A stretch of 42,567 nucleotides of DNA from a virus, in IMG/VR virus record IMGVR_UViG_3300046516_001619, positions 1 to 42,567 of that record. One strand, given 5' to 3'. A model generated the notes under the pieces. That model had not been told where the DNA came from and did not search any database. It saw only the letters and a program-made list of their open reading frames with translations. Numbering within the stretch: position 1 is the first letter of the stretch; each line of letters starts with the position of its first letter. A program made the position numbers and the translations under genes. Shown here piece after piece: positions 2,386 to 40,234 of the stretch.

Positions 2386-3242
2386 CGAGTGCTTTCGTCT
2401 TCGTCCCACAGGCCTAACTGGCACGACGTACACAGCGGCAACGTCGCTCTGGCGCTGAATCGTCGTGGTCCAGTCGGACCACCCGCCCATTGCCACTTGT
2501 CAAGGCCGAGTGCTTTCGCCTCGGCTTGCAGGTTTTCATAGCGCCGGCCTACGTCCGGGTAGAAGAACGCAATCTCACCGAGCTCGGCGTGGTTGGCCAA
2601 CGCACCACACAGGCATTCGCCCGAGCGGTGGCAGTTGACCGACACCGGGTTACGGGTGATGCCGTGATCCTCGAGATAGTCCAGGCACTGACGTTTCGTC
2701 CAGCCACGGATCGGGTTGAACCACACCGCGGACCGCTCGGCATCCTTGTAGTGCAATGGCCGGCTGGCCATTTTCGAGTGCTTCCGTCGAGCCGACTCCG
2801 CGATACGGATCCCGGTCACCAGGCCGATGCGCTCGCGGCGAGTGCTTTTGTGCTGCTTGATGGCCAGCTGCACCTGGCGCTGCTTCAGGTAGTAGTACAT
2901 CGTGCTGTGGCTCTTCGGGCCGCTCGGAAAGCCACGGTGGGTGGTCCCGTCACGTGTGGTGTAGCCCTCGAGCACGAGCCGCTCGTAGTCGCCCCGCGGC
3001 GCCTCGTACACCTCGAGCGGCCAGCCCTGCTCGCGGCAGGTATCCTCCACGAACTGACGCGTCTGGGGTACCCCGGTGCCCGTGTCCAGGTGAATGCAGC
3101 CGCTGAATGCTGCGTGCCTGGCCACGATGCTGGTCGCCGTCAGCGAGTCGTCGCCACCACTGAACAAGGCGTACACCTGGCTCGGATAGTGCTCGAGCAC
3201 GCCCGCATCGATACTCGCCAGTGCTGCCTCGACCAGGCTCAC
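2382..3242 (-). CDS. PAPS-reductase-like PP-loop ATP pyrophosphatase (DndC/CysH superfamily)
   Basis: PP-loop YALFSGGDDSLTATSIV near the N-terminus and a C-terminal Cys cluster CHRSGECLCGA. GTG start at 3242 overlaps the upstream stop (GTGA). Confidence 0.65.
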   Translation of the reverse strand: MSLVEAALASIDAGVLEHYPSQVYALFSGGDDSLTATSIVARHAAFSGCIHLDTGTGVPQTRQFVEDTCREQGWPLEVYEAPRGDYERLVLEGYTTRDGTTHRGFPSGPKSHSTMYYYLKQRQVQLAIKQHKSTRRERIGLVTGIRIAESARRKHSKMASRPLHYKDAERSAVWFNPIRGWTKRQCLDYLEDHGITRNPVSVNCHRSGECLCGALANHAELGEIAFFYPDVGRRYENLQAEAKALGLDKWQWAGGPTGPRRFSARATLPLCTSCQLGLWDEDESTR

Positions 3243-12515: not shown

Positions 12516-14327
12516 ATGATGGCACCCAAACGCCCCTTTAGCCTGCGTTCAGGCCCAGCCTCTCCGCTTACCGTTCTGCGCATTCAGCAAGCCATTGCCT
12601 ATGGCCGCGTCTCGAGCGAGATGCAGCGCGACAGCGAGTCGATCAAGGTCCAGGTGACCAAGTTGCTGGGCACGATCAATGTGCGCGACAACCCCGAGCT
12701 CCCTGACCGCGACCAGCTCCGACTGCTGGGCGCCTACTGGGACGATGGCGTCAGCGGCACGCTGCCGCTCGAACAACGGCCCGAAGGCCGCCAGCTCATG
12801 GAGCGCATCTGCCCGCGGCTGTCCACCAAGTGTGACGGTTTGTGCGGCCACAATGGCGAGGTCGATCAGGTGTGGATCACCAAACTGGATCGACTGGCGC
12901 GCAAGCTCCAGATCCTGATCGATATCGAAGCCTGGCTGCGACGGCACAACGTGTCGCTGATCTGCATGGATCCATCGATCGACACGCGCACCGGGACCGG
13001 TCGGCTGGTGTTCACCATCCTGGCGAGCATTGCCGAATGGGAACGCGAGACGATCCTCGAGCGCACCACAGCTGGCAAACATCACAAGGCTTCGGAGGGC
13101 AAGTGGGTGGGCGGTCGCCAGACCTTTGGTTTGAAAACTGACGAGAACGGCTATCTGGTCATCGACGACACGTTCGTCGACCGTTGTGGCGAAATGGCCT
13201 ACCGTGTCGTCCAATCGATTTTCGAGAACATCGCGCTGCATGGATCGACGGCGTGGAAAGAAGCGCAACGCACCGGTCTGACCGAGCGTCGCGTCGGCTG
13301 GATCCTGCACAACGCGCGCTACAAAGGCGAGGGTGGCATCTACGCCAAAGACGGCTCGTTCACGGCTGCCGAAAAGAACGCGCCACCACAGCTTGTCAGC
13401 CCCGCGCTGTGGCAGATGGCCCAGGACGCGTTGATTACCAACCGCGCCAAGGCCGGGGGCCGACATCATCGCACGTACCTGTTGAGCGGGCTCCTGATCT
13501 GCTGTGAGCCGTATGACTACATCTCCACGGTGGACGATCAGGGCCGTACCCGCGAACGTCCGTCAGACAAAGTCAGTGGCCAGTGCGGCCGATCGTTTGC
13601 TGGACGTGCGGGCGTCAACAAGCCCGGCGGTCCCGAATACAGCTACTACTTCTGCACGCGCACGCTGAAGGCTCAGGTCGAAGCCAACCGAAACGGCTGC
13701 ACGGCCAAGATGCTGCGCTCCACCGATGTCGACAACGCCATTTGGAATCTGGTCAAGCGTTTCGTCAGCAATCCGGGCGAGGTCATTGCCGAGGCAGACT
13801 CGGGCCGTAGCGACATGCTGACTCAGTTGAACAGAGACCTCACCCATGTCGTCGAGCAGCTCGGCCAGGCGCATATGGAACGCGAGAACGTCTTGCGTTC
13901 GGCCGAACGTGGTCTACGCACATGGGACGAAGCCGAGGCTCGCCACCGTGAGATCAGCGGCCAGATCAAAGTCCTCGAGCAGCAGCGTGACGCGTTCGAG
14001 ATGCAGATCCGCTCGCTCAGCTACGCCGACCTGGACGCGCAGCGCGGCGAGGTCACGCTGAACGACATCAGCGAGGACCTCGAAGAGATCGAGCGCGAGA
14101 ACAACGTTGAGCTCAAGAAGGCGTTGATTCAAGCGGTCGTCAGACGCATCGAAGTCCGTACCGTGGACGGTGAACCACGGCTGCGAGCGATGATGCGCTT
14201 CGGTGGAGACGCCAGTTTTTTGATGAAGGAACTACGGTCGGGACGGAAACCGACAGACGATACGCATATGGAAATGAGCGTGAGTCTTGCGCCAGGCAAA
14301 AAGGACTGGAACGTCTCGGCCGCGTAG
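12516..14327 (+). CDS. int: Large serine recombinase (integrase)
   Basis: Resolvase-type catalytic domain with AIAYGRVSSEMQRDSESIKVQ (catalytic Ser) and ITKLDRLARK...LASIAEWERETILERT. It continues with a recombinase domain, the Cys cluster LICCEPYDY...GQCGRSF...YYFCTR...NGC (zinc ribbon) and a C-terminal coiled coil. 603 aa. Confidence 0.9.
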   Translation: MMAPKRPFSLRSGPASPLTVLRIQQAIAYGRVSSEMQRDSESIKVQVTKLLGTINVRDNPELPDRDQLRLLGAYWDDGVSGTLPLEQRPEGRQLMERICPRLSTKCDGLCGHNGEVDQVWITKLDRLARKLQILIDIEAWLRRHNVSLICMDPSIDTRTGTGRLVFTILASIAEWERETILERTTAGKHHKASEGKWVGGRQTFGLKTDENGYLVIDDTFVDRCGEMAYRVVQSIFENIALHGSTAWKEAQRTGLTERRVGWILHNARYKGEGGIYAKDGSFTAAEKNAPPQLVSPALWQMAQDALITNRAKAGGRHHRTYLLSGLLICCEPYDYISTVDDQGRTRERPSDKVSGQCGRSFAGRAGVNKPGGPEYSYYFCTRTLKAQVEANRNGCTAKMLRSTDVDNAIWNLVKRFVSNPGEVIAEADSGRSDMLTQLNRDLTHVVEQLGQAHMERENVLRSAERGLRTWDEAEARHREISGQIKVLEQQRDAFEMQIRSLSYADLDAQRGEVTLNDISEDLEEIERENNVELKKALIQAVVRRIEVRTVDGEPRLRAMMRFGGDASFLMKELRSGRKPTDDTHMEMSVSLAPGKKDWNVSAA

Positions 14328-21224: not shown

Positions 21225-22409
21225 CTACCGATTGACCCACGTTCTGGCGTGACCCCAGCGCATGGCCGTGGGCCGCAATCCATGCGTGCTGCGGAACCCG
21301 ATCGTGGTCGGTCGACGCGGCCCGTACAGGTTGGCCTGGCGACTGAATTCCTGCGCGGCCATCTGCTGGGTGGCCTGCGTTCCCCCAGCCGCGGCCGCCA
21401 CCATGCGCGCGGGGAAACGATGCCACGCTTCGATGTGGCCGGCCGCCGCGGCATAGTCGACATCGACGTCGAGCAGGTCGCCGTCGTTGGTCGGACCCGT
21501 CAACGACTCTGCTCCGTTGACCCAGGACGACGCCGGTCGCCAGGCGCTGACCCACACCGAAACGGGCGCGGTCCAGTAGCCAGCACCCATCAGCCACACG
21601 TGACCACCCTGGCTCACGGCCTCGGACGGAGCGTCGCCACAGGGTTGCACCCAGCCGTACTGCACGCGGTCGACCTGCCACGGCTCGATCAGCCAGGGGT
21701 ACTGAGCCGTCAGGTCAACCCCACCGTAGGGTGCCGTCGATTGAGCCTGCACGAGGTCTGGAACGAAGCACCGCCGCAGACCGGCCATGACCGCCACGCG
21801 CAACTGCTGCTCCGGGTCGAAGTGGTGGAACTCGAAGACTTCACCAGGGACGGGAATGGTGCCCCAGGCGCGATCGGGATAGACCCGTCCCATCTCGGGA
21901 TCGTAATTGGCCACCAGCGCTTGCCGATCGACAACATCCAGCACGACCGGCACTCCATCCCGCGTTACCCCGCGGCGCAGAAGCCACAGGTTCGTAACGG
22001 TATCGAGGTCGATGGTCGAGCGCAGTTGTGGCAGGTTGGCGAACGTGAACTGCGCCGTGTTGGGGACCTGGCGATCGGTAAACGCCGACAGGTACGGACC
22101 AACCCGCCGCGCAACTTCCTGCTCGAGCTCGGCCAGGGTACAGCCCGTATGTGGCGGGGCCGTGACTGGCCACGCGGCAGAGTAGGGAGCAAACGTTCCG
22201 TCGCTGGCATAGCGTGTCGTGCGGTACCAGTCCGTCGGCGCCCCGGCCGTATCGACGTAGGCATAGCTCGTCTGGTCCGTCACGTACGGCAGCTGCACGA
22301 CCAGGACGAACGCCCCGGTCTGGGTTGGCGCCCGTTCGAGCTGAATGCCCACGTAGGTCACCATCATGACGTTGACCTGCGGCTCGTTGAGCGTAATGGC
22401 GTTCGACAT
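21225..22409 (-). CDS. Tail-associated structural protein (394 aa)
   Basis: ATG 22409 (MSNAITLNEPQV...) overlaps the stop of the upstream gene by 1 nt. The ORF-track extension to 22598 overlaps that gene's repeat region and is an alternative-frame artefact. Confidence 0.5.
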   Translation of the reverse strand: MSNAITLNEPQVNVMMVTYVGIQLERAPTQTGAFVLVVQLPYVTDQTSYAYVDTAGAPTDWYRTTRYASDGTFAPYSAAWPVTAPPHTGCTLAELEQEVARRVGPYLSAFTDRQVPNTAQFTFANLPQLRSTIDLDTVTNLWLLRRGVTRDGVPVVLDVVDRQALVANYDPEMGRVYPDRAWGTIPVPGEVFEFHHFDPEQQLRVAVMAGLRRCFVPDLVQAQSTAPYGGVDLTAQYPWLIEPWQVDRVQYGWVQPCGDAPSEAVSQGGHVWLMGAGYWTAPVSVWVSAWRPASSWVNGAESLTGPTNDGDLLDVDVDYAAAAGHIEAWHRFPARMVAAAAGGTQATQQMAAQEFSRQANLYGPRRPTTIGFRSTHGLRPTAMRWGHARTWVNR

Positions 22410-23689
22410 CAGGTCTCCACGGCCACCCCGCTCGAAGGTCGCGCTGGAATAGAGCTCACCGTCATAAACGGACCTCCTGCAAGGGTGCTCGTTGCGGCTA
22501 CCCCGCCCGGGGGCCGTGCTGGAATGAAGATTGCCGTCATGTACGGACCTCCCGCAAGGATGCTCGCCGCGTGCCCGGCAAGGATAGGAACAATCCACGT
22601 CGCGTACGGCGGTGGGCCGGGGAGTGGAATGACGCTGACCGTCGGAGCGTAGACCGCCTCCGCTGACGGGATCCCATCGGGACGCAGGCTCGGAGCCGTG
22701 AATGCAACGAACGGCGCATAGACCTGCTCGGCAGTCCCGATAGCCAGTGGGTTGACGGTCTGCGGAAGGACCAGGGAGACCGATGGGGCATAGACCTGAA
22801 CTCCCGTACTGATCGTGTCGGGCAGGACTTGCTGCGAAACTGTCGGGCTGTAGACGGTTTCGCCCGTCCCGATGGCGTTTGGAGCAACCGACTGCACGCC
22901 ACCGCTGAGCGTGACCACCGGCGCGTACACCGACTCCGCGGTCGCGATGAAGTTCGGCAGGACCTGGAGCTTGACGGTCGGCTGATAGACCGACGCTGCT
23001 GTACTGATGAAGCCCGGCGTAACCGTTTGGGCGCCGCCGGCGGCCGGTGACTTGATCGCCAGGACCACGGTCGCGCCAGGACCCGGCGAGACGTTGCTAT
23101 CGGAAATGGTGACGTGCGTCGAGGCCGGTGCCGCGGCGCCTGAGGCGAGCGCCTGCTTGGCGATGCCGATGTCGTCGGCACTGTTCCACTGAATCGTCCA
23201 CGTTGACGGTGCAGACCAGGTGGGCGCGTTGTCGTTGGTGACCGCCGTCGCCATGATGGCCAGATCGTCGATGGTCGCCGCGCCCGTCAGCGCAACGCTG
23301 GGCAGGCTCGAGTTGGTGCCAGCGACACTGGTGGTGTTCTGCGCCGACGCGTTGTTCTCGTACGGCGTGCCACTGCTCTGGGCGCCGGTGATGCGCAGCA
23401 GCGCGCCGACACGCCAGACCGAACCCGTCCACGACCAGGACGTGGCGTCGCTGCCGACGGCAATCTTCCAATCGACGCGCAGGTGCATCGACCCCGAAGG
23501 GTTGACGTTGTACAGGTTGGTGAACCCGCTGGGCATCGTCACCGTGCCCGTCGCGTCGGTGTAGAAGATCGCGACCAGCAGGTCGCCGGCGACCGTCCCG
23601 ACCGGTAGCGTTGGCGCAAACGTGGTGCCGTTGGCCCCGGCGACCGTCTGCATCCCTGCAGTACCGGCAGGGATTGTCGGACTGGTCAT
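22409..23689 (-). CDS. Tail protein with tandem peptide repeats (426 aa)
   Basis: Six copies of an I-x-T-x-E-x-V-Y-x-P-x-V type unit: FISTAASVYQPTV, FIATAESVYAPVV, AIGTGETVYSPTV, TISTGVQVYAPSV, AIGTAEQVYAPFV, IPSAEAVYAPTV. A C-terminal 23-aa duplication follows: ILAGGPYMTAIFIPARPPGGVA / TLAGGPFMTVSSIPARPSSGVA. Confidence 0.55.
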   Translation of the reverse strand: MTSPTIPAGTAGMQTVAGANGTTFAPTLPVGTVAGDLLVAIFYTDATGTVTMPSGFTNLYNVNPSGSMHLRVDWKIAVGSDATSWSWTGSVWRVGALLRITGAQSSGTPYENNASAQNTTSVAGTNSSLPSVALTGAATIDDLAIMATAVTNDNAPTWSAPSTWTIQWNSADDIGIAKQALASGAAAPASTHVTISDSNVSPGPGATVVLAIKSPAAGGAQTVTPGFISTAASVYQPTVKLQVLPNFIATAESVYAPVVTLSGGVQSVAPNAIGTGETVYSPTVSQQVLPDTISTGVQVYAPSVSLVLPQTVNPLAIGTAEQVYAPFVAFTAPSLRPDGIPSAEAVYAPTVSVIPLPGPPPYATWIVPILAGHAASILAGGPYMTAIFIPARPPGGVAATSTLAGGPFMTVSSIPARPSSGVAVET

Positions 23690-24592: not shown

Positions 24593-24765
24593 TATTTCTT
24601 CTTCCCCCTGGTCTTCGTCCCGGCAGCTTGTGCCGTCACGCGACGACTCACCACCGGTGGGTAGTACGGCGGCAGAGCCGTCGCGCCAGGGGGCGGCCCC
24701 TGTGACGGCAGCAGTGGATTGGGCGTGAGTTTCGGCTTGTACGCCGCGGTCTTGCGTGTGGCCAT
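24592..24765 (-). CDS. Small basic Pro-rich protein ending in KKK (57 aa)
   Basis: In-frame ATG 24765: MATRKTAAYKPKLTPNPLLPSQGPPPGATALPPYYPPVVSRRVTAQAAGTKTRGKKK. The longer ORF-track N-terminus overlaps the upstream gene. Confidence 0.4.
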   Translation of the reverse strand: MATRKTAAYKPKLTPNPLLPSQGPPPGATALPPYYPPVVSRRVTAQAAGTKTRGKKK

Positions 24766-24769
24766 CAGA

Positions 24770-24937
24770 TCACTTCTTCTTGCTCTTTCTGGCGGGGAGC
24801 TTGGACTCTTTGGTGCCCTTGAGTTTCTTCTGCGCCTCAGCAGGATCGAAGCCGGGCACGCCACCACCCGCGGCCAGGCCAAAGAACCTGGCCTGCGCGC
24901 GAGACACTGGCTTCTTGTAGGGTCGTCCACCTGGCAT
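24770..24937 (-). CDS. DUF3008-like small basic protein (55 aa)
   Basis: ATG 24937 is preceded by aggagaa. MPGGRPYKKPVSRAQARFFGLAAGGGVPGFDPAEAQKKLKGTKESKLPARKSKKK; the S.AQ.RFFG motif recalls the DUF3008 family. Confidence 0.45.
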   Translation of the reverse strand: MPGGRPYKKPVSRAQARFFGLAAGGGVPGFDPAEAQKKLKGTKESKLPARKSKKK

Positions 24938-24948
24938 GTGAGGTTCTC

Positions 24949-25362
24949 CTATGCCGTGGTAAACGTCGCGTCGGGCGTGAGCGTGACCGCGGTACCGACC
25001 GTGACCGTGATGCGGTAGTGGTAGAGCGTGGCCGTGGTCAGGCCGGTCAGGTTGGCCAGGATCGCGCCCTGGCCCGAAGCAGGCGTCGCCGCCTGATTCG
25101 AGCCATACGCGGTGGTCGTGCCGTAGTTGACCGCCATGGCCGTACACGGCTGGTCCACCGTCCAGTTGACGGTGGCCGTCGTCGCGGCAATCGGCGTGAC
25201 CGACTGGCCGCGTACGGTGGCGCCCACCAGCGCAGCTTTCCCATCGCGATTGAAGGCACGCACCATGGCCTCGTCGGCGATCGCGGCCACGTGGCCTTTA
25301 CCGTAGATGGTCGCGCCGGTGGTGGTGTCCTGGGCGTCGGCCAGGAACACGACGGTAGACAC
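24949..25362 (-). CDS. Fibronectin-type-III-like domain protein, candidate head decoration protein
   Basis: TATVNWTVDQPCTAMAVNYGTTTAYGSNQAA...LANLTGLTTATLYHYRITV matches the Fn3 pattern (W.T..p....V.YG.t..yg......L.gL...T.Y.Yrv). It lies immediately after the capsid gene. GTG start. Confidence 0.5.
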   Translation of the reverse strand: MSTVVFLADAQDTTTGATIYGKGHVAAIADEAMVRAFNRDGKAALVGATVRGQSVTPIAATTATVNWTVDQPCTAMAVNYGTTTAYGSNQAATPASGQGAILANLTGLTTATLYHYRITVTVGTAVTLTPDATFTTA

Positions 25363-25366
25363 GCGA

Positions 25367-25477
25367 CTACCCCGACGGAGGCGCCGGTTCCGGAGTAGGC
25401 TCCGGCTCCGGCCCCTCGGGCTGATCGTCGTCGTCTGGTTCGGCCGGAGGACCCGGTGGTTTTGGGTCTTCGCGCAT
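25367..25477 (-). CDS. Possible micro-ORF: acidic Pro-rich peptide (36 aa)
   Basis: Manual translation gives MREDPKPPGPPAEPDDDDQPEGPEPEPTPEPAPPSG. ATG lies 1 nt after the capsid stop and the ORF fills the whole intergenic gap. Speculative. Confidence 0.2.
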   Translation of the reverse strand: MREDPKPPGPPAEPDDDDQPEGPEPEPTPEPAPPSG

Positions 25478-25478
25478 A

Positions 25479-26486
25479 TCAGCCCTCGCCGCCAGTTGCG
25501 GCCTTCTGCTGCACTACGCCAAAGGGATAGCGCGAAGCCTTGGTCGGCTGTTGGCGATTGACCGGGTTGGGCACCGCCCAGGCAAAGCGGGCGATCACAC
25601 GGAGCGCCACCATGTCCTGTTGGAGCAGGTTGAACTGGATGACCGGTGGCGCGCCGTTATCGGTGATGACACCCGTGTCAAACATCTCCATGCTGATGTC
25701 TTCGCGGATGGCCAGCATCGACTGGTCCCACTGACCCATGATCATGGAGTAGTTGGCCGCGCCCGTGGCATAGCCCGACAGGCCAGCGTTGCTGAAAATG
25801 ATCGGCTCGCCGTACAGAGACCCGGTGTCAGCCGAGGCTGTTGGAGCCACGTCCGGATACCACAGCAACTCGTTGGTGGTCGCCCGCAGACCACGTAGCT
25901 TGCTCTTGACCTGGCGACGTGCCCAGAACCCGGTGATGTCGAAGCCGTCGGCCTCCACCGCCGCCATGGCCGCGTTGACGTCAGCCAGGTAGTCGGGTGT
26001 GGTCGCGCCAGCAATGATCAGGTTGCCGGCTGAGCTGGCCGAAGCGACGATACTGGTGGGGAACGTCGACGGCGCGTTGTTGCCGAAGAAGATCGCCTCG
26101 TCGAGCGCGACGCCGAACGCCTCGGTCACTTTCGGCTTGACCTGCGCCCAGAAGTCATAGTCGATGTCGTCGAGGAGGTTCTTGCTGATGGGGACGATGA
26201 CGGCCATCTCCTCGGCGTTCAGGTAGACGTTGTCCCAGGCCAACGAGGTGGTCTGCTTCATGCCGACATCCCTGGCGTCGAGGCTCGCGCCGGTCAGCCA
26301 GTACGCAATCGGCAGCTGGCTCATGACCGGGATACGCTGCTGCGCCCGTTTCATCGTCACATGGGGCATGAGCCGCATCGCGGCCGATTTCTCTTCGACG
26401 GACTGGACGATGTCTTTCTGGACGTCTTCAGGGATTAAAGGCCCGGTACCTGGTACGGCACGGGTGGCGATGCTGTTGTAGGGAAT
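25479..26486 (-). CDS. Major capsid protein, HK97 fold. The 5' end is extended to a putative ATT start; the first ATG is at 26378
   Basis: The body matches HK97-type capsid proteins (...LDEAIFFGNNAPSTFP..., ...GFWARRQVKSKLRGL..., ...LYGEPIIFSN..., ...MALRVIARFAW...). The open frame upstream of ATG 26378 encodes IPYNSIATRAVPGTGPLIPEDVQKDIVQSVEEKSAAMRLMP, the usual conserved N-terminal arm. This upstream stretch has no ATG/GTG/TTG/CTG. An in-frame ATT at 26486 lies 7 nt after GGAG. Confidence 0.8.
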   Translation of the reverse strand: MPYNSIATRAVPGTGPLIPEDVQKDIVQSVEEKSAAMRLMPHVTMKRAQQRIPVMSQLPIAYWLTGASLDARDVGMKQTTSLAWDNVYLNAEEMAVIVPISKNLLDDIDYDFWAQVKPKVTEAFGVALDEAIFFGNNAPSTFPTSIVASASSAGNLIIAGATTPDYLADVNAAMAAVEADGFDITGFWARRQVKSKLRGLRATTNELLWYPDVAPTASADTGSLYGEPIIFSNAGLSGYATGAANYSMIMGQWDQSMLAIREDISMEMFDTGVITDNGAPPVIQFNLLQQDMVALRVIARFAWAVPNPVNRQQPTKASRYPFGVVQQKAATGGEG

Positions 26487-26498
26487 CGGAGTGCTCCT

Positions 26499-27230
26499 CT
26501 ACAGGGAGCGGCGAGCTCCCAGTTGGCCTCGAAGGAGATTCGAGACGTTCTTGTCGGCCGCCGAGGGAGCGCCTGATCCGATGAACTCGGGCTCGCTCTG
26601 ACCTCGGCGAAATTCACTCAGGACCTGTTTGCGGAAGGCAGGATTTCGGCGCAACTTGTCTTCGGCGTCTCTGGCACCCTCGGCCTTCCAGTGCTTTTCC
26701 AGGGCTTTGAGCCCTTCTTCGACGATGAGCTTGCGACCCTCGAGACCGATGCCCGCACCGTCGAGTGCCATGATGCGGTTGCGTTCGGTTTCGGGTAAGG
26801 CCAGCACCACCGGGTCGACCGTGAAGCGGTCGTGGGTGGCACCGATGCTGCCGAGGATCTCACCGTTCTGTGCGTCGAGCTGAGCCGATTGCTCAGCCTT
26901 GCGCTCTTCCTCGGCGTACGCCCACGGGTCTTCGTCACGGAGCTTGCGGCGTCGTTCGGCAAGACCCTGCGCGTGGCGTTTGGCTTCGCGCCGATCCGTT
27001 TCGGCCTGAACTCGACGATCGAGCTCCTCCTGCGTCAGCGTGATCGCGCTGGACGTTTCGGCTGGCTCTGGCTGGTCCTGTGACTCGGGCTCTTCGCTCC
27101 CCCTCCCTCCGCGAAACAATCGCTGGAGAAAGTTACGGGAAGCGGGTCGCTCGGAGATCGAACCGGTCTCGGCTGCCTGGACATCCGCGGATGGCTCTAC
27201 GCTCGAAGGCTCGGCTGGTTGTGGCTGCAT
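26499..27230 (-). CDS. Scaffolding protein (243 aa from ATG 27230; TTG 27257 alternative)
   Basis: Highly charged, helical, coiled-coil composition (LTQEELDRRVQAETDRREAKRHAQGLAERRRKLRDED...). It lies directly upstream of the capsid gene. GAGGA SD before ATG 27230. Its TAG stop is in frame with the capsid ORF. Confidence 0.6.
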   Translation of the reverse strand: MQPQPAEPSSVEPSADVQAAETGSISERPASRNFLQRLFRGGRGSEEPESQDQPEPAETSSAITLTQEELDRRVQAETDRREAKRHAQGLAERRRKLRDEDPWAYAEEERKAEQSAQLDAQNGEILGSIGATHDRFTVDPVVLALPETERNRIMALDGAGIGLEGRKLIVEEGLKALEKHWKAEGARDAEDKLRRNPAFRKQVLSEFRRGQSEPEFIGSGAPSAADKNVSNLLRGQLGARRSL

Positions 27231-27259
27231 CGTAATCCTCGGCTTCTCGGGGTGCAATC

Positions 27260-29113
27260 TCAGGACGGGTACTGGTACGGCTGCATCGCGTCAGACATAG
27301 GGTTGAACGGCAGCAAGCCGGTCTGCTGCTGGCCCTGGGCCAGACCGCGAAAGTCCTGCTGCGGGGCTGCCCCGTACCCCTGCTGGAGGCCTGCATAGAA
27401 GGGGTGCTGGGGAATCTGGGGACTCGGCTGGGACGGCTGAGGCTGCCCCTGGTGGCTGACGGTGACCGTGCCGTCCGGCGCCACCGTGGTCGTCGGTGTG
27501 TAGTTGGTGCGATTGAGCTGTTGACTGACGTCCGTCTGCGATGACTGCGCCAGGGCGGGTGCGGCCTGCACGCCGTGGGTCGCGTTCATGTTCTGGGCAG
27601 CCGTCGGCGACAGGTGGGCCAGGGCCTGGTTGGTAGCCTGCTGGGCCAGCGCATTCAGGTCCGGCATCTGGAACGTCACGGCACTCCCGATATCGACGTT
27701 GCCCGGCGCTTTGCCCGTGGCGTACGCCTGCTGGATGTTGTTCAGGGCACCAGCGAATCCGGGGCCAACCATGTACGGCATCTGCGCCTTGGCCGCCTCA
27801 ACAGCGTTGGTGCCCGCCTGAGACGCGGTTGCGTAGTTCAGCCGATCCTGCTCGCTCGTCTTCTGCTGTTGTTCAACAGTTGCCTGTCGCTGAGCCACGT
27901 CGAGCGCGTTCTTCTGCGGCTCGACGGTCTGGTTCCACCACCGGTCGAACTGGGCAGCCGCGTCGGCCTGTGACAGCGCGCCGGAGCTCATCTTCTGAGA
28001 CAGCTCGTCGCGCTTGGTCTGAGCTGCTTGCTGCAACTGGCTGACGCGCATGGCCACGTCGGCCGGCGTCTTGGGCATGAAGCTCGGATTCGGAACGCTG
28101 CTGAGCTGCCCGTCCGTCATCGTATTGATGTACGGCTGGTCCGTCCCGGCGCTGACCTGGGTGGGTGTCGTCGGGGTGTAGCGCGTCGGCGACACGCTCG
28201 GATCGACGACCCACTGACCGCCCTTGTAGATCTCCTGAACCTTGTAGCCGGACTGGACGTTGGGCCGAACGTCACCCTCTTTGGGTTTGTTGAGCAGGTC
28301 CGGGCTATACGGCTTGGGCTCCACGCTGGGATCGGTCACCCACTGGCCACCCCTGTAGATCTCCTGGATGCTGTAGCCGGACTGGACGTTGGGTCGGGTG
28401 TCGCCTTCTTTAGGCTGGGTGCCGGCTTGCAGCGTAGTAAGCGTCTTGCCGTCCCAGGTGTACAGCGCACCTTGCTGGCCCTGAACCAGTTGCGGCTTGT
28501 CCGGCGTCGAGGCAATGAGGGGTTTGAGGGTGGTGCCGTCCCACGAGTACATCGCCCCGTTCTGACCGTTGACCACGGTCGGTCGCGTGGGCTGGGCGCC
28601 CTCGGGCACCGCGACGCGATTGCTCGCGTTCTTCGGGTCCTGTATGGCAATAACTTTGCTTTTCGGATCGCTCGGATCCGCGTGAATCTGCACCCACGTA
28701 CTGGGATCGGACGGAGGAGCACTGCCGGGCGCGGCGGGCTTGGTCTCGGGCGGCAGATCGGTCAGCAGGTGATACTGGCCGTCCTTGCCGCGACCGTACT
28801 GGTACGTCGTCGTCGAGCCATCGGGGTTGTAGACGGTGTACGGCACACGGTCCAGGGGTGGACTCGACTGAGCCGGCGCAGCCGTACCCGTGGCCACGCT
28901 GGGCGCCTTCTCGTCCATGCTCTTGATCTCGCCAGCACCGTTGATCTCCACCGTGGTGCCGTCCTGCATGGTGTACGTATAGAACGGATCTTTGACGCGG
29001 GCGCCATTCGGGTCGAAGTCAGGACTGGTCTTGGAGGGCTGACCGACCGGGCCGCCGTGGCGAGTCTGGAACGCCTCCCATCCCGCTTGTGTCGTCAGAT
29101 CTTCAGTTGCCAC
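27260..29113 (-). CDS. Large virion-associated protein with internal tandem duplications (617 aa)
   Basis: GTG 29113 is preceded by aaggaa. Repeats: VVNGQNGAMYSWDGTTLKPLIAS / LVQGQQGALYTWDGKTLTTLQAG, and KEGDTRPNVQSGYSIQEIYRGGQWVTDPSVEPKPYSP / KEGDVRPNVQSGYKVQEIYKGGQWVVDPSVSPTRYTP. The C-terminal half is Q/A-rich. Confidence 0.6.
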   Translation of the reverse strand: MATEDLTTQAGWEAFQTRHGGPVGQPSKTSPDFDPNGARVKDPFYTYTMQDGTTVEINGAGEIKSMDEKAPSVATGTAAPAQSSPPLDRVPYTVYNPDGSTTTYQYGRGKDGQYHLLTDLPPETKPAAPGSAPPSDPSTWVQIHADPSDPKSKVIAIQDPKNASNRVAVPEGAQPTRPTVVNGQNGAMYSWDGTTLKPLIASTPDKPQLVQGQQGALYTWDGKTLTTLQAGTQPKEGDTRPNVQSGYSIQEIYRGGQWVTDPSVEPKPYSPDLLNKPKEGDVRPNVQSGYKVQEIYKGGQWVVDPSVSPTRYTPTTPTQVSAGTDQPYINTMTDGQLSSVPNPSFMPKTPADVAMRVSQLQQAAQTKRDELSQKMSSGALSQADAAAQFDRWWNQTVEPQKNALDVAQRQATVEQQQKTSEQDRLNYATASQAGTNAVEAAKAQMPYMVGPGFAGALNNIQQAYATGKAPGNVDIGSAVTFQMPDLNALAQQATNQALAHLSPTAAQNMNATHGVQAAPALAQSSQTDVSQQLNRTNYTPTTTVAPDGTVTVSHQGQPQPSQPSPQIPQHPFYAGLQQGYGAAPQQDFRGLAQGQQQTGLLPFNPMSDAMQPYQYPS

Positions 29114-29168
29114 AGGACCATTCCTTTCTCTGCCAGGACATGCGGCCTATCATCGTCCCAGGCACCCA

Positions 29169-29372
29169 ATGCACATTCCTGACTGGTTGTTCATCGTCTT
29201 CATCGTGCTCTGGATACCGGGTGGCATCCTGGTCATGGCCCTGCCGAGCGGCCCCAGCACGATCCTTGCGGTCATCCTGGCCCTGCCACTGGTGGTCGGC
29301 TTCATCCTGAACGTCATCGCCGGTATCCGTGAGCAGCGCCTAGCGGCCCGCGGTCGCCATCGCAGTCTCTAA
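29169..29372 (+). CDS. Opposite-strand small membrane protein (67 aa, two TM helices); moron-like
   Basis: MHIPDWLFIVFIVLWIPGGILVMALPSGPSTILAVILALPLVVGFILNVIAGIREQRL. Strong third-position G/C bias in this frame. It occupies the otherwise empty 226-bp gap between two minus-strand virion genes. A TATCAT -10-like hexamer is at 29148..29153. Confidence 0.55.
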   Translation: MHIPDWLFIVFIVLWIPGGILVMALPSGPSTILAVILALPLVVGFILNVIAGIREQRLAARGRHRSL

Positions 29373-32300
29373 GCGCCGGTTGTATTCGCTGTCCGGAATG
29401 CTGTCGCGAATGTCCGCGGCGGCTTCCTGACGCGCGCGATCGACACGCAACTGGACGATCTTCAACTTCTGAGCCGAGGGCATGCCCTCGAGGTCGCCGC
29501 TGGCGCGCAGCTCCTGGAGAGCCTGGTCGCTATAGCGATTGGCCAGTTGCTGGTAGTGCGTCTCCTCGATCGCCGTGAGCGGCACCTTGCCAATCTGCGG
29601 CGTGACCGGCGACGGTGTCCACTCCACGCCCTGCGACTGCAAGTAGCGCAGGTTGTCGTCACTGACCAGATTGGTGCGAGCCGTATTGCCGAGCTCGCCG
29701 GTGCTGCCGCGCACGCCCAGCGCGGACAGCAGACCACCACCGACAGGTGCTTGCTGCGGTTGGTTGCCGGTATCCGAACCGATGTTGCTGGCGCCGAGAA
29801 CGGAGGCGCCCACGCCACCGAACATGTCGCGCACGGCAAAGTCCAGTTGGGACGGACGGATCTGCAGACTCGGATCGATCGCTCGCGCGGCCGTGGTCAA
29901 GGCTGTGGCCATGCCCTTCGACGCGGCCGAAGCCTGCTGGTCGTTGCGCACCGTGGCGATCTGGCGGTTACGGAAGATGTCTTTGTTCAAGGCCAACTGC
30001 AAGCCCGTGTTCATGCCGGGGATGAACTGTGGCTGCAGCGATCCGGGGATGTCGGCCGCGGTCTGGGCGCGCATCGGCACAGCTGACCAGGCCATCGATT
30101 GCAGCGCTTTGGCCCAGTCGGTGTGGTCCGGCGTCCCCACCGTGTTCTCGAGCGCCTGGTGGGCAGCCGTTCTTGCGGCAACGACGAATGGGGCGTAGCC
30201 GCGCGCGTTGATCCACTGAAACTGTGGATGGCGATTGCCCTGGGCGTCGACGGGTGCTTCGCCCGGCAGCATGATCACCACACCCTGGTCCTTCAGGTAC
30301 TGCGGCACGTCAGCGTAGTCCTGGGCGCGCTGCGGGTCGGCGTTGTTCCACGCCTCGGCCATGACCGCCGGCACGCCGACGAGCATGGTCGCCGACGCCA
30401 GTGCGCCACGCGGGTTCTCTTTGAACGCGCGCGCCACCTGGGCGGTGCCCTGGATACCCGCGTTGGTAAACGGGATGAACGAGTTGATCGTCTTGGCAAA
30501 GGTGCCGCCCTCATTGAAGTCGAGCGTGACCGTACGGCCGTTGAGCACCGCGCGCGCCGGCGTCGCGCCGCGGCGTTCTGCGAGGCGCATGCTGGCGATG
30601 CGCGGTCCCTGCTCGGTGCGCTCGGCAACGGCCGCAATCGGTCGCAACGTGGCGACTTGCTTGAGCACCTTGACCATGTCGCTGGGGTTATTGATCAGGT
30701 TGCCGCCGACCGCCTTGACTGACTCGGCCAACTGACCGGGTGAGCCGAACTCGAACGTGGGTGTGGCCAGGCCACGCACGGCTGCCTTGCGCTCGGCGAC
30801 CGTGCGGCTCACCGTCCCCGCACCACCGCCGCCGCCTTCGATGAATTGCTGCGCGCCCTTGCCGCGCTGCTCGTTCTGGAGCAATCCCTGGAACGCGTCG
30901 GCATACCCTTTAAAGAGCTCACCGGTGATGCGCGGCAAGGCCAGTGGATTGCCGCCTTCACGCGACAGCTCGCGCTGGAAGTACTCGGGTACGTCCAGGC
31001 TGGGGTTGCGCACCAGAGCGAAGGCCGGGTTGAGCACCGTCGTCACGTTGCGCATGAAGTTGGTCCAGTGGCGAACGAATCCCGGCGCCTGCTCGACGAG
31101 CGGTCCGTTGATTGCCGCGGCCAGCTCGGGTGGCGCGACGTAGCGTTCGACCGTGCCGTTGTTGATGCGCTGCACGATTGGCTGCCCGGCCGTGGCCGGC
31201 TTGTCCGTCCGCTGCAGCAACTGCTCGCCCTCGGGGCGCGCCTGGTCCAGATTGACGAAGGCGTTCGCCACCGCATTACGGCGAGCCTTCGTCTCCACCT
31301 GGTGGGTCAGGCCGACGATCGAGCCGAGCGGATCCTCCCGGAACTTCTGGGTGCCCTCGACGGTGTAGTTGCGAATGCCCGCGTCGGCTAGACCGATCTT
31401 GGTCCCGGCGCGCAGATTGCCCGAGGCTTCACCCTCGTGCAGGTAATCGAGAATCCTGGTAGGCACCCAGTTGGGGTACTTCTGCTGCCAGGCCTGGGCC
31501 GTCTCGGGTGAGATAACGCCATGGTCGACCATGGTCTGGCGCAGCCCGCCGATGTAGCTGTAGACATCGCTGGCAGCCTGGTTGAGGCGAGCCATTTGCT
31601 CGGGACCGAGTTCTTTGGCCATGGTGTCGAGGGCCTTGATCGAGTCGGCCACGCGCAGCCCCCCGGAGAAGGCGCGATTGGCGTACGCGTCCTGGCCGGC
31701 TGCCGCAGCGTCCTGGAGGATCTGCTGGCGGGCGCTGTCCACCGCGGCCTGAGCCTTGTCGAGGCTTCGCTGCGCGGCCGGAACCTGACGTCCGCTCGCG
31801 GCGTCGCGCCTGGCCTGGGCCTTGTCCAGCGCATCGGTCAAGCTCGAGGCAATCGGCTTGTCGGCAGCGTCGGCCTGGACCGCGTCGCCGATAGCCCTGG
31901 CCACGTCGATGTTGTTGCGGTGGATCAACAGCGTGTTGAGCGCTGGCAATTCGTCGTTGACCGACTGGACGATGGGCTTCAGGTCGCGATTGATGCGCAC
32001 CTCGGCAGCCGGGTCGCCGTTCTGCTCGCGCAGCAAGGCACTGACGTCCAGGTTCTCGGGCGGGTTAGCCAGGTCGGTGTGGCCGATCGATTGCAACGCG
32101 TCCTGCTGGTAGCGGTCGGCCGCCTCGTAACGATTGGTGACCGCGCGCACGAAGCGGTCGCGCAGGCTGCCCGTCGGTGGAGCCGGCGGCTCAGAGCCGA
32201 GCATGCGACCGACAGCGCGATTGGCTGGATCGGCTGAAGTGGTGGGATCCCAACCTCCACCAGTAGGTGGCGGCGGCTCACCGGCACGCACCGTGACGCG

Positions 32301-35018
32301 AGCTGTGGGTGTCTCGGCTGTGACCGTTTCGCCGGGTGCCGAGGCGGCACCGCCAAAAGCTGCAGTTGCCGCCGACGGTGGGGTTCCGGTGAGACCGCGG
32401 TCGATTCTGGACTGGGCCAGGGCCGCTCCTTCGGGGGTATACCCGCCACGGCCGGTCGCCGATTCGACGTCGATTCCGGCGTCCTTGGCTGCCTGGTAGA
32501 GCTGAGTCGCAATGCCCTGACGCTGAAACTCGGGAGTGACCGCGACTTCGACGACGTCGGGATTGCCACTGGCGTCGTTCAGGACGGACAGGATTCCCTG
32601 AGGCTGGCCGTTTTCGTCGCGGAATACGACGTTGTTGCCGAGCTCGGGGCGAGGCGTGCCCACGCCGTTACCCATCGGCTCCACGGAGATGCCCGGCGCT
32701 CCTTCGTGATTCACGAGCCAGGCAGATAGCTGGCCTACGGTATTTGCCTCAGCCTGAGGCTGCGTTGCAACGACTGGCGCTCTTTCACCAGCGGGCGGTA
32801 TTCGCGGAGTTTCCGCGGCACCGGCCGCGCCTTCGAGCGCACGCCCTCCGCGCGGGACTTCCGGGGGCAGCGTCACGCCACCGATGGCCAGTTGAGCGCT
32901 CTCCCAGCGCTGACGATCCTCTGGCGTCATGATGCTGGGATCTGGAAGGAGGCCACCGGGGGCGTACTTCTGGCTCAACTCCTGGATGGTGTCAATCTGG
33001 GTCAAGATGCTGGGCGCGCCGACCAGGCCACCAGCCAGACCGGTCACTCCGCCAACCACGGGCATGTCCGGGGCGATGTTCGAGATCGCGCTGCCCAGCT
33101 CCTGACGCTTCTGCTCGAGCGCGCCACCAGGCAGCAACGCGTTGACGGCTGGGCCAACCACATTCTGCCCGAGGCTCTGCTCGGCACCGGTCAGGACGTT
33201 GCTGGGCATTAGTGGGTTCGACGCCACGCCTGTTCCGACATCTGAACGCGCGCCCTGGACCTGATCGATGAAGTCGCTGAAGGCATTCTTCAGGCGATCC
33301 ACCGCGTTTTGAGCCTGGGTCGGCTCGGTCTGCGGCGCATTGCCCGTGCCCAGCGGATTGGTCAGTTGGTCCGATGGTGTGGGTTGACTGCCAGCCGGTG
33401 TGGGGCCACCGGGTGCAGCCACCAGGGGGCCGACGTCCGGTGACACAGAGCCGGCGCTGGTAACTGCCTGGTCGAGCTGCTGCGTCACCTGATCCGCCGC
33501 TTGCTGAACGCCACCAGCCACGTTCTGAGCCGCAGTGCCGACACCTGAGAAGAAACCTCCGATGCTGTCTTTCGCCCGATCCAGGAAACCGCCGGGGTTG
33601 GTCGTCTGGTCAGCCGTACTGGGTGCCGGAACCTGTGGGTTGTCAGCCAGCAGGGCTCCCTGGATGGGCCCCATGATGGCTTGCATCTGATCCGGCGTCA
33701 TCCACTCGGCGCCGCCCTTCAGGTCGGTTCCGGAGCGTCCGACGTGAAACGCACCCGAGTTGGGGTCGTAGCCGTCAGCCGTGAAATAGTGACCCTGGGT
33801 CGAAATCGTAACCGGATTGCCGGTCTGGGCTTCCTTGGCCATGGTCGCAACGTCCGGACCGATCAGCCGTGTCGGCACCCCGAGCTTGTCCATGAGGGCT
33901 TTTTCGGACGAAATACCAGCCATGCCCTGGGCACTCGTCCAGCCGACGCTCTGGGCCAGGTCGGTGGCTTCACGGAGCGTCGGGTTGCGGCCAAACTTCT
34001 GGGCAAAGCGGACGGCAGCCGCCGGTCCGCACGCGGCATAGGCTTCGTCGTTGGAAAGTTGCGGATCGCCGAACTGGCTGATGTCACGGCCACCACTGGT
34101 CCAACTGCCGGTGCGCGCGAGGAGCTCTCCCGGGGTGGCCTGCTGCTGTGGAGCCTGACCCTGCAGGATAGTGTCGACGTAGTTCTGCGTCTCTTTAAAA
34201 GGAGGGACGCCACCGTACTTGTCGACGTTGCCGCCACCGGCGTTGTACGCAGCCAGGGCTTTGCGGTAGTCGCCCTGGTACTTCTGCAAGTTCTGGGCGT
34301 CCAGCCTGGCCGCGGCATCCAGGCTGGCATAAGGGTCGGTGGGGTCCAGGCTGACGCCAGCGGCTGTCTCGGGCATGAACTGGGCAATCCCGATCGCACC
34401 AGCTGGCGACTTTGCCGTAGGGCTGAACCCAGACTCTTGCTGGATCTGACGGCTGAAGATATCCGGGTCGATACCGGCCTTCTGCGCTGCTTGCCGCGCA
34501 TACGCCTGCAGATCGCCACCACGTGTGATGTCTGTTGTCGTCGGCTGCGATTGCTGAGGAAACGCCTCGGCCGGCAGCGTATCGGGCGGTGGCGTGATTG
34601 GCCGCTGGGGAGGCGCGCCCGAGGGCGTCACGCCAAGAGCCTGGCTCACACCCGACGGCAGGATATCCGGGGGCTGTGTCGTTTGTGACGGCTGTGTGAC
34701 GGCTGACGAGGGCAGGACGGACGGTGGTGGGGTCAGTCGCACGTTCGACGGGATAGATGGCCACGCGTCAGGCTGAGAAGTGACTGCCGGCGCCGTCGGG
34801 GTGGAGGGCGACGAAGGCGGCGCCGGCAGCACATCCGGCGGAGGAGTGAGCGTGGCGTTACCCGTCCCTAGCGGGTTGGTCAGCGCATCGCTCGATGGTG
34901 GCGGCTCGAGCGTGGAGACCTGCCCGATCTGGTCGATCCTGGACTGGGTCTGCTGCCCAAACTGGTCAGCCTGATACTGACGGTAGTCGTCCTGCGGAAC
35001 GTCCGGCAGATCAGGCAT
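29340..35018 (-). CDS. Giant polyvalent virion/ejection protein (1892 aa): Pro-rich repeats + SLT lytic transglycosylase + papain/C39-like Cys peptidase + GNAT acetyltransferase + about 1000-aa uncharacterised C-terminal region
   Basis: SLT domain: FSRQIQQESGFSPTAKSPAGAIGIAQFMPETA...LAAYNAGGGNV (aa ~165-285, nt ~34164..34526). Peptidase: NDEAYAACGPAAAVRFA...TQGHYFTADGYD (aa ~305-460, nt ~33639..34106). GNAT motif A: VVEVAVTPEFQRQGIATQLYQAAKDAGI (aa ~760-875, nt ~32394..32741). N-terminal (L/I)TPPP(D/S)xLP repeated four times. LTNPLGTGNA occurs twice (aa ~46 and ~552). Confidence 0.8.
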   Translation of the reverse strand: MPDLPDVPQDDYRQYQADQFGQQTQSRIDQIGQVSTLEPPPSSDALTNPLGTGNATLTPPPDVLPAPPSSPSTPTAPAVTSQPDAWPSIPSNVRLTPPPSVLPSSAVTQPSQTTQPPDILPSGVSQALGVTPSGAPPQRPITPPPDTLPAEAFPQQSQPTTTDITRGGDLQAYARQAAQKAGIDPDIFSRQIQQESGFSPTAKSPAGAIGIAQFMPETAAGVSLDPTDPYASLDAAARLDAQNLQKYQGDYRKALAAYNAGGGNVDKYGGVPPFKETQNYVDTILQGQAPQQQATPGELLARTGSWTSGGRDISQFGDPQLSNDEAYAACGPAAAVRFAQKFGRNPTLREATDLAQSVGWTSAQGMAGISSEKALMDKLGVPTRLIGPDVATMAKEAQTGNPVTISTQGHYFTADGYDPNSGAFHVGRSGTDLKGGAEWMTPDQMQAIMGPIQGALLADNPQVPAPSTADQTTNPGGFLDRAKDSIGGFFSGVGTAAQNVAGGVQQAADQVTQQLDQAVTSAGSVSPDVGPLVAAPGGPTPAGSQPTPSDQLTNPLGTGNAPQTEPTQAQNAVDRLKNAFSDFIDQVQGARSDVGTGVASNPLMPSNVLTGAEQSLGQNVVGPAVNALLPGGALEQKRQELGSAISNIAPDMPVVGGVTGLAGGLVGAPSILTQIDTIQELSQKYAPGGLLPDPSIMTPEDRQRWESAQLAIGGVTLPPEVPRGGRALEGAAGAAETPRIPPAGERAPVVATQPQAEANTVGQLSAWLVNHEGAPGISVEPMGNGVGTPRPELGNNVVFRDENGQPQGILSVLNDASGNPDVVEVAVTPEFQRQGIATQLYQAAKDAGIDVESATGRGGYTPEGAALAQSRIDRGLTGTPPSAATAAFGGAASAPGETVTAETPTARVTVRAGEPPPPTGGGWDPTTSADPANRAVGRMLGSEPPAPPTGSLRDRFVRAVTNRYEAADRYQQDALQSIGHTDLANPPENLDVSALLREQNGDPAAEVRINRDLKPIVQSVNDELPALNTLLIHRNNIDVARAIGDAVQADAADKPIASSLTDALDKAQARRDAASGRQVPAAQRSLDKAQAAVDSARQQILQDAAAAGQDAYANRAFSGGLRVADSIKALDTMAKELGPEQMARLNQAASDVYSYIGGLRQTMVDHGVISPETAQAWQQKYPNWVPTRILDYLHEGEASGNLRAGTKIGLADAGIRNYTVEGTQKFREDPLGSIVGLTHQVETKARRNAVANAFVNLDQARPEGEQLLQRTDKPATAGQPIVQRINNGTVERYVAPPELAAAINGPLVEQAPGFVRHWTNFMRNVTTVLNPAFALVRNPSLDVPEYFQRELSREGGNPLALPRITGELFKGYADAFQGLLQNEQRGKGAQQFIEGGGGGAGTVSRTVAERKAAVRGLATPTFEFGSPGQLAESVKAVGGNLINNPSDMVKVLKQVATLRPIAAVAERTEQGPRIASMRLAERRGATPARAVLNGRTVTLDFNEGGTFAKTINSFIPFTNAGIQGTAQVARAFKENPRGALASATMLVGVPAVMAEAWNNADPQRAQDYADVPQYLKDQGVVIMLPGEAPVDAQGNRHPQFQWINARGYAPFVVAARTAAHQALENTVGTPDHTDWAKALQSMAWSAVPMRAQTAADIPGSLQPQFIPGMNTGLQLALNKDIFRNRQIATVRNDQQASAASKGMATALTTAARAIDPSLQIRPSQLDFAVRDMFGGVGASVLGASNIGSDTGNQPQQAPVGGGLLSALGVRGSTGELGNTARTNLVSDDNLRYLQSQGVEWTPSPVTPQIGKVPLTAIEETHYQQLANRYSDQALQELRASGDLEGMPSAQKLKIVQLRVDRARQEAAADIRDSIPDSEYNRRLETAMATAGR

Positions 35019-39994: not shown

Positions 39995-40234
39995 TCACTT
40001 GTCCGGGTAGTCGACGTGATTGAACTGGGCCTCCAGCGCTTGGAGCGGGCTGGTGTTCTGACTGAGACCGTAGCTTCCAAACCACGTCCTCTGGTTCGGC
40101 CACTGGACGTGGTGGCACGTCTGGGTGGCGACGACAACGTCGCAGTGCTCGCAATGCCGGTGGGGGTAACCGACGTGGCAGCACGGTCCGCGTCCGCCAC
40201 AGGTCAGAGTCGTCAAGGCAACCTTCTTTCTCAC
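39995..40234 (-). CDS. Cys/His-rich putative zinc-binding protein (79 aa)
   Basis: In-frame GTG 40234 overlaps the terminase TGA (GTGA). The product reads VRKKVALTTLTCGGRGPCCHVGYPHRHCEHCDVVVATQTCHH... Confidence 0.45.
   Translation of the reverse strand: MRKKVALTTLTCGGRGPCCHVGYPHRHCEHCDVVVATQTCHHVQWPNQRTWFGSYGLSQNTSPLQALEAQFNHVDYPDK

Follow-up and report, generated by a model that had tools for sequence, protein, structure and literature searches.

Start codons beyond ATG, GTG and TTG are treated as rare curiosities in bacteria and are ignored by gene finders, and ACG is not a listed initiator of translation table 11. Here we describe the major capsid gene on the minus strand of IMG/VR record IMGVR_UViG_3300046516_001619, a stretch of 42,567 nucleotides (nt) of viral DNA that is called the window in its full length and to whose positions all coordinates refer. 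Comparative sequence analysis makes it very probable that this gene is translated from a near-cognate codon, the ATT at 26486..26484, and not from ATG, GTG or TTG, and that the in-frame TAG of the open reading frame (ORF) upstream is an ordinary stop. Near-cognate initiation itself is already known from infC and pcnB of Escherichia coli; the novelty lies in its repeated use on one particular gene of a phage family, the major capsid gene, in linkage with certain upstream cassettes, and in how often ACG stands at the capsid start. Full-text literature searches turned up no earlier description of such starts in the capsid genes of phages, although a precedent may have escaped them.

The codons CUG, AUU, AUC, AUA and ACG were reportedly grouped in 1996 by Sussman et al. 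as 'class IIA' codons, which are sensitive to initiation factor 3 (IF3), with AAG and AGG forming a weaker class. In E. coli reporters, AUU, AUC, AUA and CUG initiate at about 1–2% of the level of AUG and ACG at a lower level, and an N-terminal Met was found by mass spectrometry for the AUC and ACG reporters (bioRxiv 10.1101/063800). IF3 represses near-cognate start codons (PMC9723500). The AUU start of infC, which encodes IF3, lies 3 nt after the thrS stop (UAA GGU AUU), and about half of the initiation in reporters is reinitiation (PMC3592434). The set of codons found at the capsid start is a subset of the one-base neighbours of AUG with measurable initiation, but the E. coli reporters were engineered, whereas the capsid codons occur in natural loci, where selection appears to keep them and where ACG is the commonest near-cognate codon. 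As in infC and pcnB, where the inefficient codon limits translation through IF3 discrimination, an AUU start is accompanied by a Shine-Dalgarno (SD) sequence, and as in infC it lies close behind the stop of the preceding gene. Unlike infC and pcnB, the gene described here encodes a major virion structural protein, for which one of the highest expression levels is expected; near-cognate starts are found again and again within a phage family, with ACG, ATC or CTG in place of ATT in some members, and nothing points to a feedback loop through IF3.

Two further systems are comparable in part. The ACG of adeno-associated virus VP2 is a weak near-cognate start on a capsid ORF that sets protein stoichiometry; it depends on eukaryotic scanning and leaky initiation and yields nested proteins from one mRNA, whereas initiation at the capsid gene of the window would be bacterial, SD-directed and limited to a single product. 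The delta domain of HK97 gp5, and capsid-scaffold fusions or read-through extensions such as A1 of Q-beta, come to mind because the window has a scaffold-like ORF adjacent to and in frame with its capsid gene; here, however, relatives differ in frame, in spacing and in the stop codon used, and the capsid gene appears to have a start of its own. The HK97-fold major capsid proteins of actinobacteriophages (8ECI, 8EDU and others, and gp6 of Arthrobacter phage ChuckDuck) share the fold family, the gene order and the motif I-P-Y-N...L-I-P-E-[DE]-V, but IPYN is internal in 8ECI (residue 12) and the annotated start of the ChuckDuck capsid gene lies 10 codons upstream of the first aligned residue. Identity is also low: the nearest cultured-phage capsids share 35–42% identity with that of the window. 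No cultured relative of the window's own clade was found in the phage collection, and megablast of the scaffold-capsid region against cultured phages returned nothing.

The upstream ORF, a putative scaffolding protein gene (26499..27257, minus strand; 252 amino acids (aa), TTG start, taken from the ORF list), ends with the TAG at 26499..26501, which is here in the same frame as the capsid gene. By direct reading of the minus strand, the TAG is followed by the SD sequence AGGAG (26494..26498, with GGAG at 26497..26494), a 7-nt spacer CACTCCG (26493..26487) and the ATT (26484..26486) that we assign as the probable start codon because it aligns with the start codons of relatives. The gap from TAG to ATT is thus 12 nt, or the four codons AGG AGC ACT CCG, none of which is a canonical start. 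The re-annotated capsid coding sequence (25479..26486, minus strand) comprises 335 codons plus a TGA stop and is predicted to encode a member of the HK97-fold family. The first in-frame ATG (26376..26378, minus strand), at which a mechanical 299-aa ORF call begins, would be Met37 of the re-annotated protein and is probably internal. If it were the start, the 35 codons of the N-terminal arm region (26379..26483, minus strand; PYNSIATRAVPGTGPLIPEDVQKDIVQSVEEKSAA) would be lost. The first-pass annotation had pointed to a 40-codon stretch after the scaffold TAG that lacks a canonical start, and direct reading of the sequence agrees: the 40 in-frame codons (26498..26379) translate to RSTPIPYNSIATRAVPGTGPLIPEDVQKDIVQSVEEKSAA, lead into the ATG at 26378 and contain no ATG, GTG, TTG or CTG. 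Given the capsid gene's own codon frequencies, the chance of 40 codons without ATG, GTG or TTG is about 0.04, and 0.008 if CTG is also excluded; by itself, the start-free run is suggestive only as a sign of an unusual start.

That the stretch between the TAG and the first ATG is a conserved, translated N-terminal arm, as the first-pass annotation had proposed, is borne out by domain matches, structural homologues and codon-level selection. The extended translation matches Pfam PF05065 (Phage_capsid) with an E-value of 3e-27 and 96.1 bits, against a cut-off of 24.2, over profile positions 2–271 of 280 and residues 19–311 of the translation, and the match begins 22 residues before ATG 26378. The capsid also matches phrog_10 (major head protein, E 8e-43) in PHROG and, in PDB, 8ECI (E 2.6e-70), to which it is aligned from residue 1, i.e., from 'IPYN', 8EDU (E 1.5e-55) and six further entries. 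The assignment of the arm rests on these Pfam and PDB sequence alignments; an AlphaFold model built from a 24-sequence alignment had a mean predicted local distance difference test score (pLDDT) of 34 and was unusable for the fold. A protein search yielded upwards of 100 database homologues whose coverage of the extended sequence is 99%. Within the arm, P2, Y3, R9, P12, P16, L17, I18, P19 and E20 are invariant. Among 30 loci without a canonical start, the ratio of nonsynonymous to synonymous polymorphism (pN/pS) of the 35 N-terminal codons is 0.27 in the capsid frame versus 1.75 and 2.2 in the other frames. Over the whole gene, pN/pS is 0.266 in near-cognate loci and 0.279 in canonical loci, and this likeness indicates that the near-cognate capsid genes are working and not decaying. 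By its Pfam, PHROG and PDB matches, the capsid protein appears to be an ordinary member of the HK97-fold family.

The codon used at the capsid start was compared among 168 related metagenomic loci, including sets of 80 from IMG/VR and 80 from metagenomes with 3-kb flanks, which gave 87 unique sequences including the window; the scored codon was the triplet immediately 5' of the conserved CCN-TAY-AAY (Pro-Tyr-Asn). This position is occupied by GTG in 29, ACG in 17, ATG in 16, ATT in 13, TTG in 9, ATC in 2 and CTG in 1 of the unique loci, and the ATT of the window (26486..26484) is the aligned counterpart. Every scored codon is therefore ATG or a one-base variant of it, and the other 57 codons, AAG and AGG included, never occur. 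Such a restriction to ATG and its one-base neighbours implies that the position is read by the initiator tRNA and not as a sense codon, and the usage of the same codons within the capsid genes differs accordingly. As sense codons, ATT and ATC account for 14% and 84% of Ile, ACG for 33% of Thr, GTG for 36% of Val, and TTG and CTG for 11% and 50% of Leu; at the start position, ATT outnumbers ATC by 13 to 2 and TTG outnumbers CTG by 9 to 1, while all 29 Val codons are GTG and all 17 Thr codons, for instance those of L020, L030, L036, L091, L112, L012 and L055, are ACG. In all 33 unique near-cognate loci, no in-frame ATG, GTG or TTG is found between the upstream in-frame stop and Pro-Tyr-Asn, and the next canonical codon lies 16–44 codons downstream at a variable position.

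The start position is also supported by protein databases. Metagenomic homologues are 72–95% identical to the window capsid, and most of them are 335 aa long and start with M/V/L-PYNSIATRA...; for instance, P0001, which is 95% identical, begins with Val. Independent gene callers thus start the 335-aa homologues at the codon that matches the window's ATT. The first-pass annotation had named initiation at the in-frame ATT 26486, after GGAG, as one of two possible mechanisms, and this proposal gains from the ATG, GTG and TTG codons of relatives at that very codon, from the gene callers and from the exclusive use of one-base variants; in the alignment of related capsid genes, homologues start at the codon aligned with ATT, upstream of Met 26378. 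Among the 120 best database homologues, 39 (P0045–P0120) are only 291–319 aa long, i.e., 16–44 residues short, which we attribute to gene callers that disallow ATT and ACG and choose internal codons instead. The window's closest relatives, L001–L004 (94–95% aa identity), have ATG or GTG starts. Mapped on a neighbour-joining tree of 76 full-length capsids, the start codon requires a minimum of 37 changes, and its canonical or near-cognate state a minimum of 19 switches; both counts leave recombination out of account and are rough.

A group I intron (Rfam RF00028) interrupts the capsid gene of some relatives (L058:2776-2993 and L060:995-1305, at 63 and 71 bits, and also L056, L132 and L134 at about 2770–3000). 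It is inserted after about codon 20 (..GPL[IP] | EDVQ..), and exon 1 lies about 230–290 nt upstream of the remaining gene. The capsid gene of the window has no group I intron. In three intron-bearing relatives exon 1 starts with ATC or ATT, which brings the near-cognate total to 36 of 90 unique loci. As judged from the aligned sequences, about 40% of the capsid genes of this phage family start with ATT, ACG, ATC or CTG.

The trait is specific to the capsid gene. The same comparison was made for four neighbouring genes, the upstream ORF and three downstream genes, and none of their unique loci (0/43, 0/55, 0/47 and 0/52) lacks a canonical start near the aligned N-terminus, in contrast to 31 of 89 for the capsid gene; in the three downstream genes, ATG is present in 60–94% of loci at the position aligned with the window's start. 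Confinement to the capsid among five genes tested means that a generally permissive host is an insufficient explanation. A purine-rich SD is found at similar spacing in essentially all relatives of both start classes. The predicted duplex between the SD and the 3' tail of 16S rRNA has a free energy of -8.3 kcal/mol in the window, and the means for canonical (-7.3 kcal/mol) and near-cognate loci (-6.9 kcal/mol) do not differ significantly.

Near-cognate codons are instead associated with particular upstream sequences, or cassettes, defined as the 18 nt 5' of the capsid start (26487..26504 in the window). Class 1, 'GAGGGCCACTYYN', occurs in 18 unique loci with ACG in 9, ATT in 8, CTG in 1 and a canonical codon in none, and its pattern GAGG[G/A]NCACTCYN takes in the window's GAGGAGCACTCCG. 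Class 2, 'AGGGTA...', occurs in 12 unique loci with ACG in 7, ATT in 3, ATC in 2 and again no canonical codon. All 30 loci of the two classes thus have near-cognate starts versus 3 of the 57 others, of which 54 are canonical (Fisher p 3e-20, phylogenetically uncorrected); the three exceptions, including the window (GAGGAGCACTCCG-ATT), resemble class 1. Within one cassette both ATT and ACG are found, which are two mutations apart via ATG or a non-start codon, and no ATG allele was seen. This hints that a strong start codon is disfavoured within the near-cognate cassettes. The cassettes also contain a conserved spacer, CACTC, for which possible pairing in a hairpin is the sole explanation that we can offer.

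Taken together, the SD at functional spacing, the restricted set of start codons, the selection on the codons that a start at the first ATG would skip and the onset of the Pfam and PDB matches point to ATT as the start codon. In the mechanism that we propose, a ribosome bound at AGGAG would allow the initiator tRNA to read the ATT 7 nt downstream, and the product would be a 335-residue HK97-fold capsid protein beginning with (f)Met-Pro-Tyr-Asn. The in-frame TAG of the upstream ORF would be an ordinary stop, and the shared frame a one-in-three coincidence. With the TAG only 12 nt before the ATT, a terminating ribosome would cover the start region, and some of the initiation may come from ribosomes that have just terminated (termination-reinitiation), and the outcome might be that capsid translation is throttled or made conditional relative to the operon neighbours.

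Several points weigh against initiation at ATT. The support for it is comparative throughout. Near-cognate codons are very inefficient in E. coli, while hundreds of capsid copies are needed for each virion; the phage's own host may differ from E. coli in its tolerance of such codons. A stronger SD that would compensate for the weak codon was sought in near-cognate loci and was not found. For the single window, an assembly error from ATG to ATT is possible, though 13 unique loci carry ATT. Finally, the switch counts come from a neighbour-joining tree that ignores recombination, and the cassette association includes no phylogenetic correction. A further step, that the near-cognate start and its dedicated cassette form a selected regulatory device that makes capsid synthesis conditional or throttled, is a tentative proposal that we hold to be somewhat less likely true than false. 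Synthesis may then depend, for instance, on a weakening of IF3 discrimination towards the end of infection, or on whether the scaffold gene upstream is being translated.

The alternative that survives best refines initiation at ATT and does not contradict it: the ATT might be used essentially only by ribosomes that end at the scaffold TAG. Such an obligatory coupling would fit the stop-start gap of 12 nt with an SD in between, and E. coli infC provides a precedent of reinitiation at a stop-proximal AUU (PMC3592434). In most near-cognate relatives, however, the stop is 22–58 nt upstream (range 4–58 nt), and the RNA structures that could enforce the coupling give a mixed picture. In the window, a weak hairpin is predicted at 26477..26503 (minus strand) in the minimum free energy fold of 26450..26560, in which UGUAG, including the stop, and GGAG of the SD pair with UUCC-CUACA, including two bases of the start codon, but the segment from -45 to +6 folds no better than shuffled sequences (z-score -0.38). 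Across the family, the same segments are more structured than dinucleotide shuffles (mean z-score -1.45, and -1.94 in GTG loci, versus -0.46 for an intragenic control), and some of them sequester the SD or the start codon; in GTG loci the start codon is paired within a stem CACCUCGG...CCGAGGUG whose loop holds the SD, and in cassette class 1 an 11-bp stem ends at position -1 and takes in part of the SD. From MAFFT alignments of these regions, RNAalifold recovered no more than short helices of 4–6 pairs with few compensatory changes. Consequently, the hairpins of the initiation region are a lead towards translational coupling and not a result, and we regard an obligatory form of coupling as unlikely, though far from negligible.

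The hairpin with the SD in its loop (-40..+3) was noticed in L006, L016, L017, L027, L028, L031, L035, L038, L089, L126 and L152, with apparent compensatory changes between loci as judged by eye, and with an altered partner base in TTG loci. A hairpin that pairs a GTG start would normally repress initiation, which suggests coupling to upstream translation in those loci.

The three remaining alternatives are far weaker. The ATT could stem from faulty sequencing or assembly, or an ATG could recently have been inactivated by mutation in a defective genome or a minority variant; the codon is one base from ATG, and L001–L004 carry ATG or GTG. Either is very improbable, as ATT is found in 13 and ACG in 17 unique loci from many independent metagenomes, including near-complete contigs of 40–45 kb, whole-gene constraint is undiminished in near-cognate loci, and the 13 nt upstream of the window's ATT (GAGGAGCACTCCG) belong to a type of cassette that is seen exclusively with near-cognate codons. 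It is still harder to believe that translation begins at ATG 26378 and yields a 299-aa capsid without 36 N-terminal residues, with the stretch upstream as an untranslated remnant. That ATG is the first canonical start, and many relatives have been annotated in this way by automated pipelines; but the upstream 35 codons are under the selection described above (pN/pS 0.27 in loci without a canonical start) and include many invariant residues, both the Pfam match and the alignment with 8ECI set in before it, relatives have their next canonical codon anywhere between +16 and +44 codons, and no purine-rich SD is seen in the bases directly 5' of it (GAGAAATCGGCCGCG). Least credible of all is the other mechanism of the first-pass annotation, in which read-through of the TAG would give a scaffold-capsid fusion, analogous to the HK97 delta domain or to a Q-beta A1-type extension, that supplies the N-terminus: the TAG of the window is in frame with the capsid gene and only four codons before ATT, and L062 has the same geometry (TAG, 12 nt and ACG), but across 67 loci the upstream stop is in frames 0, 1 and 2 in 22, 26 and 19 cases, its position ranges from 23 nt within the capsid gene to 96 nt before it (-23 to +96), it may be TAG, TAA or TGA, near-cognate loci are not enriched for frame 0 (frames 0/1/2: ATT 6/6/1, ACG 4/8/1), L001–L004 have canonical codons at the same position, with the stop out of frame in three of them, the window contains no suppressor tRNA and no Rfam element at the junction, and the position of the SD suits initiation on its own. 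Some natural read-through at a low level is possible, but not as the mechanism that supplies the capsid N-terminus. The suggestion that the scaffold:capsid ratio is set at this junction consequently falls as far as it invoked a fusion protein, and it stands only in the form of a weak start codon or a possible translational coupling.

Initiation at ATT and its counterparts matters in several respects. Near-cognate starts would mark the capsid gene, of which the highest output should be required, in about 40% of the members of a widespread family of soil phages. Of the 120 best database homologues of the capsid, 39, or about one third, are probably short by 16–44 residues and miss the N-terminal arm, the gene of the window would be shortened likewise, and structural or phylogenetic work on the shortened entries would miss the arm. 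The occurrence of ATG, GTG, TTG, ATT, ATC, CTG and ACG alleles of one gene in similar genomes with linked cassettes also amounts to a natural replicated experiment, which could reveal how the stoichiometry or timing of phage structural proteins is set at translation. If the start and cassette are indeed a selected device, they would be a bacterial-virus counterpart of infC autoregulation and of the non-AUG capsid starts of eukaryotic viruses; and if the assignment of the start is true, ACG would be a naturally used start codon of bacteria or phages, extending the accepted set of initiators.

The gene order around the capsid gene is that of Arthrobacter phage ChuckDuck, i.e., portal, hypothetical protein, scaffold, capsid and decoration protein. 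The 252-aa upstream ORF matched no Pfam or PHROG family and has no significant similarity to the ChuckDuck scaffolding protein (BLASTP E 0.9); the name 'scaffold' is therefore a putative label taken from its position. Comparison of the 137-aa ORF downstream of the capsid gene with the ChuckDuck decoration protein likewise gave no match. Near the junction of upstream ORF and capsid gene, neither promoter-like sites nor terminator-like sites on the minus strand were found, and an Rfam scan of 25000..27500 found no element. Directly after the capsid stop, an ATG-started 36-aa ORF (25367..25477, minus strand) encodes a Pro/Glu/Asp-rich peptide, MREDPKPPGPPAEPDDDDQPEGPEPEPTPEPAPPSG, without a family match, and ends 4 nt before the GTG of the 137-aa ORF. 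High G+C at third codon positions 5' of the 137-aa ORF had suggested a second gene with a non-canonical start near about 25363..25500; this candidate was ruled out, as the frame is Arg-rich nonsense and the gap is occupied by the ATG-started ORF 25477..25367. Conservation of frame in tblastx comparisons 3' of the capsid gene was uninformative because close relatives match in all frames.

The window as a whole, at 42.6 kb and 63.7% G+C, resembles the almost complete genome of a temperate phage. Among its products are a terminase large subunit (40231..41577), an 1892-aa polyvalent protein in the head-gene region (29340..35018, minus strand) with an SLT lytic transglycosylase domain, a GNAT acetyltransferase-like segment near the threshold and an LPD38 large polyvalent protein domain, and a large serine recombinase (12516..14327, plus strand) with Resolvase and zinc-ribbon recombinase domains, the last of which indicates a temperate lifestyle. 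A primase-polymerase, a PD-(D/E)XK nuclease and Gp157 and GP88 family proteins are also encoded; no tRNA gene and no translation factor were found in the window. A search for prophage relatives in 185,579 reference genomes gave no close one, the best being 38–40% matches in Blautia and similar taxa.

Some minor features of the window were noted in addition. Between the genes for the 1892-aa protein and a 617-aa protein, 226 nt (29114..29339, minus strand) are without a called ORF. A 457-aa ORF (21225..22598, minus strand) has an in-frame open extension of 166 codons upstream, without a canonical start, that overlaps the 3' end of a 426-aa ORF (22409..23689, minus strand) by about 190 nt; it could reflect a programmed frameshift or a further non-canonical start, or have arisen by chance, given the high G+C of the genome. 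An apparent gap of 356 nt (24593..24948) is occupied by two ATG-started ORFs of 55 aa (24770..24934, minus strand) and 57 aa (24593..24766, minus strand), both with Lys-rich tails (..KSKKK and ..RGKKK, respectively), and the latter overlaps the start of the next gene as TAATG.

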